Of a stretch of 4,059 nucleotides of DNA, positions 2 to 4,059 are shown piece by piece. The notes under the pieces were generated by a model. That model searched no databases. It saw nothing but the letters and a program-made list of their open reading frames with translations, and had not been told where the DNA came from. Position 1 is the first letter of the stretch. Every line of letters starts with the position of its first letter. Source of the stretch: a virus (Duplodnaviria > Heunggongvirae > Uroviricota > Caudoviricetes); IMG/VR virus record IMGVR_UViG_2695420714_000014, one strand, 5' to 3'. The position numbers and the translations under genes are program-made.

Positions 2-268
2 TACTCGAGGGAATTAGCCGATGCGAGAGCTGAAAATGAAACTCTGCGTGCTGATGTTGCCGCTGGTCGTAAGCGCCTGCGGATCAACGCCACCTGCTCC
101 GGTACCGTGCGTGAAGCCACCGGCACCTCCGGCGTGGATAATGCAACCGGCCCCCGACTGGCAGACACCGCTGAACGGGATTATTTCATCCTCAGAGAAC
201 GGCTGATGGCAATGCAGAAGCAACTGGAAGGAGCACAGGAATATATCCGTACCCAGTGTATACCGTGA
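2..268 (+). CDS. Rz: Rz i-spanin (inner-membrane spanin subunit), C-terminal fragment; 5' end lies outside the window
   Basis: Hand translation of the frame starting at position 2 gives ...LADARAENETLRADVAAGRKRLRINATCSGTVREATGTSGVDNATGPRLADTAERDYFILRERLMAMQKQLEGAQEYIRTQCIP*, stop TGA at 266-268. This closely matches my recollection of the lambda Rz C-terminus (...ADTAERDYFTLRERL..MQKQLEG.Q.YI..QC). Not in the ORF track because there is no in-window ATG start. Confidence 0.85.
   Translation, partial: YSRELADARAENETLRADVAAGRKRLRINATCSGTVREATGTSGVDNATGPRLADTAERDYFILRERLMAMQKQLEGAQEYIRTQCIP
21..206 (+). CDS. Rz1: Rz1 o-spanin (outer-membrane lipoprotein spanin subunit), nested in the +1 frame inside Rz
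   Basis: 61-aa ORF MRELKMKLCVLMLPLVVSACGSTPPAPVPCVKPPAPPAWIMQPAPDWQTPLNGIISSSENG. It has a signal peptide with a lipobox-like LVVSAC (Cys20) and a proline-rich mature part, and closely resembles recalled lambda Rz1 (..CVKPPPPPAWIMQPPPDWQTPLNGIIS..). GAGG at 7-10 is a plausible Shine-Dalgarno. The true start could instead be the internal Met at 36. Confidence 0.85.
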   Translation: MRELKMKLCVLMLPLVVSACGSTPPAPVPCVKPPAPPAWIMQPAPDWQTPLNGIISSSENG

Positions 269-589
269 TGTTTTGTTATGAAGGTGTTACTGGTAACGTT
301 AAGGTAATTTAACAAAGAGTCAGTTCCGGACTTTATAGTGTGCTCAGTTCATGGCCAAAAACGATTTCTGTGATAAATATTTTGAATATTATTTACAGGT
401 AAATGGAGTGGGGCACATGGATAGAAATATTACAATAGAGAATGAAGTATATGCCCGTATTGTATGGGCAGAGAAGGCAAAAACACGGTAATTCCGTGTG
501 TTGCCATGATACCTGATTGGCAGAATAGTTGTTTGGTTTTGAGTATATAGTCAGCGTTTTTTGTTCAGTAATTGCTCCCTCAAAAAATA

Positions 590-700
590 ATAAAATAAGG
601 TGATTATTTTTGTTTATTATTTAGTTTTTTTTGTGTGTTGTTTTATTGTTTTTGCGTGGTTTGTTTTTTATTGTTATTTCATTAAGGGAAGGTAAATTCA
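590..700. repeat. Phased T-tract, AT-rich low-complexity region upstream of the PerC-like gene
   Basis: Runs of T interspersed with G. Direct repeats ttgttttattgtt (638-650) and ttgttttttattgtt (661-675), with a related tttttgtttattattt at ~607-622. This composition is typical of intrinsically curved or H-NS-targeted DNA upstream of horizontally acquired genes. Confidence 0.5.
671..698 (+). promoter_or_regulatory. Candidate sigma70 promoter for the PerC-like gene (-35 TTGTTA at 671-676, 16-bp spacer, -10 TAAATT at 693-698)
   Basis: Hexamers each match consensus at 4 of 6 positions, with a T-rich UP-element-like tract upstream. The predicted transcript start is ~30 nt before the ATG at 734. 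Sequence-only prediction. Confidence 0.25.
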
Positions 701-733
701 GGATGGCAGTCTGTAGATAATCGGAGGTCACTT

Positions 734-1048
734 ATGCTACATGATCACGTGGCAGAATGTCTGGAGAAAAAAGGACTGTACCGGAGAGCAGCTGAACGAT
801 GGGCAAAAGTGATGGTACAGCTAAGTGATGACCAGAAAAGAAAAGTGGCGGCACAGAAACGAGCAGAGTGTTTGCGTAAGGCGCGCCGGACTCCGGTTTC
901 ACCGGTGAACCTGACCGAAATAAAACAAGCGGTCAACAGACTACATTCTGAGTTGGGAATGGGATTTGAAGAGCGGCGGGTATTCCGACGATATAAAGGG
1001 ACAGGAGAACAGAATACGTCCGGAAACGCGCGGTCAAAAAAATGCTAA
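734..1048 (+). CDS. PerC-family transcriptional regulator (Pch-like), 104 aa
   Basis: ORF MLHDHVAECLEKKGLYRRAAERWAKVMVQLSDDQKRKVAAQKRAECLRKARR... The N-terminal EKKGLYRRAAERW motif matches the conserved (E)EKGL(W/Y)RRAA.RW motif I recall for PerC of the EPEC EAF plasmid and the prophage-borne Pch homologues of EHEC. Strong RBS GGAGG at 723-727, 6 nt before the ATG. Size (104 aa) fits Pch-type proteins. Family assignment is from memory, not a search. Confidence 0.6.
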   Translation: MLHDHVAECLEKKGLYRRAAERWAKVMVQLSDDQKRKVAAQKRAECLRKARRTPVSPVNLTEIKQAVNRLHSELGMGFEERRVFRRYKGTGEQNTSGNARSKKC

Positions 1049-1556: not shown

Positions 1557-1578
1557 TTACGGGGCGGCGACCTCGCGG
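1557..1578. other. cosN (terminase nicking site), with the 12-nt cohesive end GGGCGGCGACCT at 1562-1573
   Basis: The sequence ...gacaggttacg|gggcggcgacct|cgcgg... matches the lambda cos junction as I recall it (right end ...GACAGGTTACG, left end GGGCGGCGACCTCGCGG...). Predicted nicks are top strand between 1561 and 1562, bottom strand between 1573 and 1574. The Nu1 start codon is 190 bp downstream of the left end, versus 191 in lambda. Confidence 0.85.
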
Positions 1579-1750: not shown

Positions 1751-2299
1751 ATGAAGGTTAATAAAAAGAGGCTTGCCGAAATTTTCAACGTGGACCCGCG
1801 GACGATTGAACGCTGGCAGTCTCAGGGACTCCCTTGCGCCTCCAAAGGTAGTAAGGGCATTGAATCTGTATTTGATACTGCCATGGCAATTCAGTGGTAT
1901 GCGCAGAGGGAAACTGATATCGAAAACGAAAAGCTCCGCAAAGAACTGGACGATTTGCGTGCGGCAGCGGAGTCAGATTTACAACCCGGCACCATTGACT
2001 ATGAACGCTACCGGCTCACAAAAGCGCAGGCAGATGCGCAGGAACTGAAAAATGCCCGTGAAGACGGAGTAGTGCTGGAAACTGAACTGTTTACCTTCAT
2101 TCTACAACGTGTGGCACAGGAGATTTCGGGGATACTTGTGCGTGTGCCGTTGACATTACAGCGTAAATATCCGGACATTTCACCATCACACCTTGATGTG
2201 GTGAAAACTGAAATCGCGAAAGCCTCCAATGTTTCAGCTAAGGCCGGTGAAAACGTGGGCGGGTGGATCGATGATTTCAGACGCGCAGAAGGCAGCTAA
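1751..2299 (+). CDS. nu1: Terminase small subunit Nu1 (gpNu1 homologue), 182 aa
   Basis: [106 protein letters not shown]... aligns along most of its length with recalled lambda gpNu1 (MEVNKKQLADIF...RTIQNWQEQGMP...KG.E...D.A..I.WYAERD.EIENEKLR...[29 protein letters not shown]...), including the N-terminal winged-HTH DNA-binding region. The C-terminal ~25 aa diverge from lambda. Confidence 0.95.
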
Positions 2300-4059
2300 T
2301 GCAGCCGGTGCGATAGCTACAGGGCTTTTATCTCTCATTATTCCTGTTCCACTGACGACAGTTCAGTGGGCCAATAAACATTATTACCTTCCTAAAGAGT
2401 CGTCTTATACCCCGGGGCGGTGGGAAACACTGCCGTTTCAGGTTGGCATCATGAACTGTATGGGCAACGATCTGATTCGCACGGTTAACCTGATTAAATC
2501 TGCCCGTGTTGGTTATACAAAGATGTTGCTGGGAGTGGAGGCTTATTTTATTGAGCATAAATCACGCAACAGCCTTCTTTTTCAGCCCACGGACTCAGCT
2601 GCTGAAGATTTTATGAAATCTCATGTTGAGCCAACGATAAGGGATGTTCCTGCATTGCTGGAGCTGGCTCCATGGTTCGGAAGAAAACACCGCGATAATA
2701 CGCTCACCCTGAAGCGTTTTTCCTCCGGTGTGGGTTTCTGGTGTCTGGGGGGAGCGGCAGCAAAAAACTACCGTGAAAAATCCGTGGATGTGGTTTGTTA
2801 TGACGAGCTTTCCTCGTTCGAACCGGATGTTGAAAAAGAGGGTTCGCCAACCCTGCTGGGGGATAAACGTATTGAGGGCTCTGTATGGCCAAAATCCATT
2901 CGCGGCTCGACGCCTAAAATCAAAGGCTCCTGCCAGATCGAAAAAGCCGCTAACGAGTCGGCACATTTCATGCGTTTTTATGTGCCCTGTCCGCACTGTG
3001 GGGAGGAGCAGTATCTGAAATTTGGCGATGATGCCTCGCCTTTCGGTCTTAAGTGGGAGAAGAATAAGCCAGAAAGTGTTTTCTACCTTTGTGAGCATCA
3101 TGGCTGTGTGATCCATCAGTCTGAGCTTGACCAGAGTAACGGGCGGTGGATCTGTGAAAACACGGGCATGTGGACCCGTGACGGCCTGATGTTTTTCAGC
3201 GCCCGGGGTGATGAAATTCCGCCGCCGCGCTCCATCACTTTCCATATCTGGACGGCGTACAGTCCGTTCACCACCTGGGTACAGATTGTCTATGACTGGC
3301 TGGATGCACTGAAAGATCCCAACGGCCTGAAAACCTTTGTGAACACCACGCTGGGCGAGACCTGGGAAGAGGCTGTGGGCGAAAAACTCGATCACCAGGT
3401 ACTGATGGATAAGGTTGTGCGTTACACGGCGGCGGTGCCTGCCCGGGTGGTTTATCTGACGGCGGGCATTGACTCGCAGCGAAACCGTTTTGAGATGTAT
3501 GTCTGGGGATGGGCTCCGGGAGAGGAAGCCTTTCTGGTGGATAAAATCATCATTATGGGGCGTCCCGATGAGGAAGAGACGCTGTTACGTGTGGATGCGG
3601 CGATCAACAAAAAATACCGCCATGCAGACGGAACCGAAATGACTATTTCCCGTGTCTGCTGGGACATCGGGGGGATCGATGGCGAAATCGTTTATCAGAG
3701 GTCAAAAAAACACGGTGTTTTCCGGGTGCTGCCGGTAAAAGGCGCATCTGTCTATGGCAAGCCGGTGATCACCATGCCAAAAACCCGCAATCAGCGGGGC
3801 GTGTATCTGTGTGAAGTGGGGACGGACACCGCAAAAGAAATTCTCTATGCCCGTATGAAAGCCGATCCCACGCCTGTGGATGAAGCCACGTCGTATGCCA
3901 TCCGTTTTCCTGATGATCCGGAGATTTTTTCGCAGACAGAGGCGCAGCAACTGGTCGCGGAAGAGCTTGTGGAGAAGTGGGAAAAAGGAAAGATGCGTCT
4001 GCTGTGGGATAACAAAAAGCGGCGTAACGAAGCGCTGGACTGCCTGGTGTATGCCTACG
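2271..4059 (+). CDS. A: Terminase large subunit A (gpA homologue), N-terminal 596 codons; 3' end lies outside the window
   Basis: Hand translation from ATG 2271 (frame 3) runs to the window end with no stop: [57 protein letters not shown]...[15 protein letters not shown]...VDVVCYDE...[26 protein letters not shown]...[14 protein letters not shown]...[17 protein letters not shown]...[12 protein letters not shown]...YLTAGIDSQ...[12 protein letters not shown]. It is collinear with recalled lambda gpA, and Y46, K76 and E179 fall at the same residue numbers as the lambda ATPase-centre residues. The start overlaps the nu1 stop by 29 bp, as in lambda (~26 bp). Not in the ORF track because it has no in-window stop. 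Confidence 0.95.

Follow-up and report, generated by a model that had tools for sequence, protein, structure and literature searches.

A group-1 pch gene, allele pchA, closing the late operon of a phage-21-like lambdoid prophage

We analysed a stretch of 4059 nt of viral DNA (the window) and conclude, with a probability of about 0.92, that the open reading frame (ORF) at positions 734–1048 is a group-1 pch gene (pchA), an accessory gene that closes the late operon of a phage-21-like lambdoid prophage and encodes a PerC-family protein, which would act by the published anti-silencing mechanism. The gene, its location and its function are already published and annotated, and the copy in the window shows no departure from the known gene. 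An entry for the protein already exists in RefSeq (WP_001303878.1, 'PerC family transcriptional regulator'), UniRef names it 'PchABC family transcriptional regulator', and an exact-sequence look-up located it on at least 1000 contigs in a public protein collection.

Gene content and coordinates

In the window the late lysis genes of a lambdoid prophage meet its packaging genes. Table 1 lists the features together with the evidence for each of them.

Table 1. Features of the window with their positions, strands and supporting evidence.
Feature	Position	Strand	Evidence
Rz, 3' part (i-spanin; last gene of the lysis cassette)	2–268	+	Pfam Phage_lysis PF03245, E = 9.7e-37
Rz1 lipoprotein (o-spanin), in another frame inside Rz	21–206	+	61-aa ORF, lipobox-like LVVSAC
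46-aa ORF, conserved in phages	351–491	+	Full-length match to phrog_2157, E = 2.7e-37
pch upstream region, presumed regulatory region and 5' leader, AT-/T-rich	492–733	+	Identical to Sakai Sp4
pch, pchA allele, 104-aa PerC-family regulator	734–1048	+	Pfam PerC, E = 3.8e-44
Hairpin AAAAAGCGAC-N7-GTCGCTTTTT	1085–1111	both	Lies between pch and the ylcI-like gene
YlcI/YnfO-family (DUF3950) small gene, convergent with pch	1130–1354	−	Pfam DUF3950, E = 1.3e-17
cosN cohesive-end sequence GGGCGGCGACCT, phage-21-type cos	1562–1573	+	Phage 21 genome records start at 1562
Nu1 / phage 21 gp1, small terminase subunit	1751–2299	+	Pfam Phage_Nu1, E = 3.4e-81
gpA / phage 21 gp2, 5' part of large terminase subunit	2271–4059, leaves window	+	Matches phage 21 terminase large subunit

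The 3' part of Rz covers positions 40–125 of the 126 positions of the Phage_lysis model, and PGAP reports a 'lysis protein' at the same place in the closest public genome (NZ_CP145657.1). The annotation of the Rz1 ORF reads 'lipoprotein precursor' (ECs_1093) in E. coli O157:H7 Sakai; other genomes list it under 'Rz1 family lipoprotein'. The 46-aa ORF sits between Rz and the AT-rich stretch 5' of pch; we found neither a Pfam or NCBIfam match for it nor a PGAP CDS at this place in NZ_CP145657.1. The YlcI/YnfO-family gene, located between pch and cos, is annotated in NZ_CP145657.1 and also matched NCBIfam YlcI_YnfO_N (E = 1.6e-8) and phrog_949 (E = 6.4e-31). In addition we observed a weak PHROG match of this gene to HicB-like antitoxins (E = 0.0099).

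The phage 21 records that begin at the cosN sequence are OL657228.1 and X02501.1, which carry cos and IHF-site annotations there. Across the packaging genes the DNA identity is 99.1–99.5% to the complete phage 21 records (M81255.1 and OL657228.1) and 98.5–99.3% to two shorter phage 21 records. PGAP reports the large terminase subunit as a CDS at 22271–24199 of the stretch fetched from the closest genome (L001). The Rfam scan of the whole window returned a chance-level match only (E = 0.6; 22.9 bits, where the gathering score is 60), and no tRNA genes were found in the window. The preliminary description, which was made from the letters alone, had placed the regulator between the lysis cassette and cos. 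The annotation gives the same order, with Rz and Rz1 upstream of the gene and cos, Nu1 and gpA downstream.

Sequence identity of the regulator

The ORF is intact and runs from the ATG at 734–736 to the TAA at 1046–1048. It had been described as a 104-aa ORF with the PerC/Pch signature, and we found this signature (EKKGLYRRAAERW) at amino acids 11–23 of the product. The N-terminal motif of the PerC family, KGLYRRAAxRW, is located at amino acids 12–23, and the length of the product agrees with the family size of ~90–110 aa. A profile-HMM comparison with Pfam PerC (PF06069), which the preliminary description had suggested as a check, resulted in a score of 149.3 bits compared to a cut-off of 22.6 bits (E = 3.8e-44). 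The match spans residues 1–89 of the protein and positions 1–89 of the 90 positions of the model and is far beyond chance. In PHROGs the ORF matched phrog_994 (E = 1.4e-45). Ten residues (A7, L10, E11, G14, R17, R18, A19, A20, R22 and W23) do not vary between Pch, EPEC PerC and the homologues from Salmonella, Klebsiella and Pantoea.

An alignment to the Pch proteins had been proposed as a second check. The product is identical to PchA (ECs_1091) of the Sakai prophage Sp4 at 104 of 104 amino acids, and the DNA of the ORF shows zero nucleotide differences to Sakai pchA. Over positions 1–1200 of the window we detected two differences to Sp4, at positions 282 and 1063, both of which are outside the ORF. 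The three group-1 genes pchA, pchB and pchC differ from each other only at coding positions 16, 172 and 183 (PMC5931665). As these positions distinguish the three genes and the ORF is identical to Sakai pchA, it is a group-1 pch gene and represents the pchA allele. A group-2 or group-3 pch identity is excluded by the 100% identity to PchA.

[quoted passage not shown] Some PerC-family members have little or no effect on ler, with PchD and PchE being reported as minimal activators (PMC5931665, PMC6265319), and plasmid homologues with 35–48% identity exist in Salmonella, Klebsiella and Pantoea. However, the 100% identity of the ORF is to PchA, a group-1 protein, and not to a member of group 2 or group 3, and EPEC PerC is just 47% identical to its product. 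The identity to PchA refutes the paralogue reading, to which we assign practically no probability.

Distant PerC-family genes with 35–39% identity were also encountered on conjugative plasmids of Salmonella (L007, 1462–2545) and Klebsiella (L008, 863–1773). One of the plasmid genes precedes a plasmid hha by two genes, and another one directly follows a plasmid ssb. The neighbours of these genes suggest a wider role of the family in the interplay between mobile elements and H-NS.

Occurrence in genomes and phage records

The best match for the whole window was the chromosome of E. coli S1-IND-01-A (NZ_CP145657.1; human stool source, 4.9 Mb), with an identity of 99.9% over all 4059 nt. In this genome the genes are arranged in the order Q, esterase, holin, lysozyme, Rz and pch, all on one strand. 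Past pch we can see the ylcI-like gene on the opposite strand, followed by terminase, head and tail genes, and the element around pch looks like a complete lambdoid prophage.

Among 5426 complete E. coli genomes the 315-nt pch ORF was present with an identity of at least 99% in 673, with a median of three copies per genome, and 687 of the 688 records with pch reached this level of identity. In the same set ler was found in 697 genomes with one copy each. In 507 complete genomes at least 80% of the window matched at a single place, which shows that the arrangement Rz-pch-cos-terminase is common. The laboratory strain E. coli ML35 (NZ_CP025747.1) displays the same Rz-PerC-cos-terminase arrangement with 97% identity. 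By contrast, a tblastn search of 50,697 deposited phage records returned pch in one record only, a fragment of 1.6 kb that came from a lysate of O157:H7. Among sequenced phage isolates there seem to be almost none with pch, although the prophage in S1-IND-01-A looks complete.

LEE status of the host

In order to detect the LEE we extended the window by 1.5 kb of the Sakai LEE1 (ler and downstream sequence) and searched again with the extended query. At the places already matched, a longer query can cause merging or loss and nothing else, and thus an extra place must be LEE1. S1-IND-01-A went from four matching places to five. Of the 30 records that matched the window best, 29 showed the same gain of exactly one place; in the other record the number of places was unchanged because two window places had merged. 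In ML35 the number of places rose from six to seven with LEE1 added to the query, implying that this strain carries LEE1 as well.

The annotation of S1-IND-01-A agrees with this result, listing tir, map (as a pseudogene), a gene of the Tir-chaperone family, escQ and escP at 2.80 Mb. The closest public genome is LEE-positive. The preliminary description had allowed for a host that has no LEE, in which case the target of the regulator would have been an open question. As the closest genome carries the LEE, this scenario does not arise there: a LEE-less host is rejected for S1-IND-01-A by both the gained LEE1 place and the annotated LEE genes. The host of the window itself was probably a LEE-positive E. 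coli.

Mechanism and transcription of pch

The preliminary description had stated that PerC and Pch proteins activate ler and through it the LEE, which agrees with the literature on the identical protein (PMC4764244, PMC5931665). Each of the three group-1 Pch proteins activated a ler-lacZ fusion in K-12 at least 4-fold (PMC5931665). According to Iyoda and Watanabe 2004, as reported in PMC4456613, group-1 Pch is needed for full LEE expression and adherence in EHEC. Fukui et al. [quoted passage not shown] Pch displaces H-NS and StpA from the LEE1 promoter, which de-silences ler, and it also enhances the Ler-dependent activation of the other LEE operons (PMC4764244). As the activation requires prior repression and the H-NS occupancy drops, Pch is an anti-silencer and not a classical activator (PMC4764244). 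According to the literature on the identical protein, Pch has no recognisable DNA-binding motif. Fukui et al. further refer to an observation, unpublished, in which PchA failed to co-precipitate with H-NS (PMC4764244). The known inputs upstream of pch are LrhA and the Lrp/butyrate/LeuO pathway (PMC4456613).

For the gene in the window we would expect the following sequence of events. Pch would associate with the AT-rich LEE1 promoter region and with other horizontally acquired loci, where it would lower the occupancy of H-NS, StpA and Hha. LEE1 would be de-silenced as a consequence and ler switched on, and Pch and Ler would co-activate the remaining LEE operons. The gene itself may be transcribed by two routes: in the lysogen from its own regulatory region, and upon induction by read-through of the Q-antiterminated late transcript. 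We infer both routes from the gene order, and the read-through from pch being oriented like Q, holin, lysozyme and Rz.

Pch, encoded by what would be the final gene of the late transcript, could alternatively be a general anti-H-NS factor that lifts the silencing of AT-rich phage or prophage DNA at induction, so that the phage benefits first and the activation of the LEE is a by-product. The gene is located directly 3' of the late operon and reads in the same direction, the levels of group-1 pch transcripts increase at a late time after SOS induction (PMC5931665), the chromosomal sites bound by Pch include many outside the LEE (PMC4764244, PMC4456613), and on conjugative plasmids PerC homologues are encoded beside ssb or near hha. 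On the other hand, the number of genomes with pch (673) is close to the number with ler (697), and a LEE1 match was gained in 29 of the 30 genomes with pch that are closest to the window, both of which fit selection on host virulence. Moreover, a gene serving the phage itself is at odds with its presence in a single fragment among 50,697 phage records. We consider a primary benefit to the phage highly improbable and retain the published action of Pch on the LEE as the preferred reading.

Pch is a master switch of attaching-effacing virulence, and its carriage on mobile lambdoid prophages explains how the regulation of the LEE is wired to phage biology and the SOS response. Both the role as a master switch and this wiring are already established for the exact pchA sequence.

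Composition and expression signals

The preliminary description had located the ORF in an AT-rich island. This is correct for the flanks but not for the ORF itself. Windows of 200 nt showed a GC content of 27.5–38.5% across positions 201–800 (with 27.5% at 501–700) and of 36.5–40.5% across 1001–1800. The pch ORF is at ~50% GC, as are the neighbouring genes, compared to 27–40% for its flanks. The strong ribosome binding site noticed earlier is present: the Shine-Dalgarno (SD) sequence GGAGG is located at 723–727 with a spacer of 6 nt to the ATG.

In the promoter scan we detected one weak sigma-70-like site upstream of pch, at 501–529, and the number of such sites in this region was not above the expectation from shuffled sequences. 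The translation of pch is reported to be limited by an anti-SD element within the coding sequence, which the small RNA DicF relieves (PMC7769764). We folded positions 690–930 in search of such an SD/anti-SD pairing. The fold was no more stable than those of shuffled sequences (z = −0.53) and the SD of pch paired weakly with nt 760–764, so that the published anti-SD element receives no independent support from the fold.

Downstream of pch the hairpin at 1085–1111 consists of a perfect 10-bp stem. Its RNA folds with −14.7 kcal/mol on the plus strand (z = −5.3) and with −11.2 kcal/mol on the minus strand (z = −6.6), and none of 200 shuffled sequences folded as stably. The hairpin was missed by the consensus terminator scan. 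It resembles a bidirectional intrinsic terminator.

We also considered that the copy in the window could be effectively silent or redundant, a passenger that is kept by prophage linkage and makes no regulatory contribution. In O157:H7 PA20 the contributions of the three copies are unequal: after SOS induction pchA reached ~8 RPKM compared to ~91 RPKM for pchC (PMC5931665). No strong promoter was detected upstream of pch in the scan, and the upstream region is AT-rich and thus of the type of DNA that is selectively bound by H-NS (PMC4764244). However, the ORF, the SD sequence and the 730 nt upstream are all intact and match the functional pchA locus of Sakai almost exactly. The near-perfect conservation in 673 genomes indicates either selection or a very recent spread, and a deletion of pch lowers LEE expression in EHEC (PMC4456613). 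We regard a silent copy as quite improbable.

Predicted structure and possible ANR kinship

A search of the PDB sequences with Pch matched no chain at E-values up to 1. Retrieval of Pch homologues gave 16 close clusters with 70–100% identity, and the alignment used for the structure was shallow with eight sequences. On this alignment AlphaFold2 produced a model with a mean pLDDT of 69 and a pTM of 0.33. It consists of five helices (residues 2–12, 15–28, 32–51, 60–73 and 78–87) and a disordered basic tail. A Foldseek comparison of the model with the PDB returned nothing useful (best E = 8.5) and no fold could be assigned from it.

We observed a resemblance to the ANR family, which comprises small three-helix anti-activators such as Aar of EAEC and Rnr of EPEC whose partners are AraC-type regulators and H-NS. 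In NCBIfam, four other PerC-family proteins had the ANR model NF033650 as their top match, and for Pch it came second, where the matching part is the N-terminal region of amino acids 1–52 (window 734–890), below the cut-off. The E-values were 0.046 for Pch, 0.0017 for EPEC PerC, 0.0098 for the Salmonella plasmid homologue, 5.3e-5 for the Klebsiella plasmid homologue and 0.002 for the Pantoea plasmid homologue, with essentially the same alignment register in all five proteins. The scores ranged from 13.6 to 23 bits and were all under the family cut-off of 32 bits. The ANR signature A-x3-E-x7-A-x3-W...C (PMC4983702) aligns without gaps to A7, E11, A19, W23 and C46 of Pch, a spacing which is shared with Aar, where A14, E18, A26 and W30 correspond to the first four of these residues.

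The resemblance is suggestive because ANR proteins are reported to bind H-NS (PMC5570504, PMC10148876), and both ANR and PerC/Pch proteins affect virulence genes that are silenced by H-NS. There are also clear differences: ANR proteins have 44–67 aa and repress virulence regulons, whereas Pch has an additional C-terminal half and activates. A comparison of two six-sequence alignments (PerC against ANR) with hhalign resulted in P = 0.11 and a probability of 0.5%, and in the reciprocal scan no ANR member matched Pfam PerC even at E-values up to 10. The sub-cut-off scores, the hhalign result and the missing reciprocal match speak against homology, and we do not assign Pch to the ANR family. That the conserved N-terminal three-helix half of PerC/Pch might be distantly related to the ANR (Aar/Rnr) module, as judged from sequence comparison, appears to us rather unlikely. 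If the kinship were true, Pch could act on H-NS complexes at least in part via protein contacts with H-NS-family or other regulators, and less in the manner of a conventional sequence-specific DNA-binding activator.

Comparison with known systems

The PerC protein of EPEC, which is encoded on the EAF plasmid pMAR2, belongs to the same Pfam family as the Pch protein of the window. The two have the N-terminal motif in common, and R36 and C46 are invariant as well in the six-sequence alignment. The reported target of EPEC PerC is the LEE1/ler promoter, as for Pch (PMC4764244). They differ in sequence and size, with 47% identity over amino acids 2–88 and lengths of 89 aa for PerC and 104 aa for Pch. 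PerC is plasmid-borne and part of the perABC operon with perA and perB, whereas Pch is prophage-borne. Furthermore, under many conditions EPEC can express the LEE without PerC, while pch is required in EHEC (PMC4764244).

With lambda bor and other late-region morons pch shares the slot between Rz/Rz1 and cos. The preliminary description had pointed to this as the place where lambda carries bor, and in related phages such as PhiR57_1 we did find bor at the same slot, between Rz and Nu1. As for other late-region morons, the base composition of the pch region differs from the adjoining phage genes and a terminator-like hairpin follows the gene. Of the features expected of an autonomous moron we observed the hairpin, the AT-rich flanks and one weak promoter-like site, the latter at a frequency also seen in shuffled sequences. 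The products are of a different nature: bor encodes an outer-membrane lipoprotein, whereas pch encodes a cytoplasmic regulator and is read in the direction of the late operon.

The closest known system is the group-1 Pch set of the O157:H7 strains Sakai and EDL933, which comprises PchA, the protein encoded in the window, and the near-identical PchB and PchC. Like the group-1 genes, pch of the window lies in a lambdoid prophage downstream of the lysis genes. The similarity to pchA of Sakai Sp4 extends to the 730 nt upstream and the 150 nt downstream of the gene, which contain the two base differences in total, and includes Rz/Rz1 on the upstream side and the terminator hairpin on the downstream side. 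The arrangement further along differs. In Sp4 (L002, 32131–39827) the segment from the lysis genes to pchA lies between IS629 and ISEc8 and has the opposite orientation with respect to the terminase genes. Unlike Sp4, the window shows an uninterrupted succession of Rz, pch, the ylcI-like gene, cos, Nu1 and gpA with packaging of the phage 21 type. We label the locus as pchA on an uninterrupted Rz-pch-cos-terminase late region with phage-21-type packaging genes.
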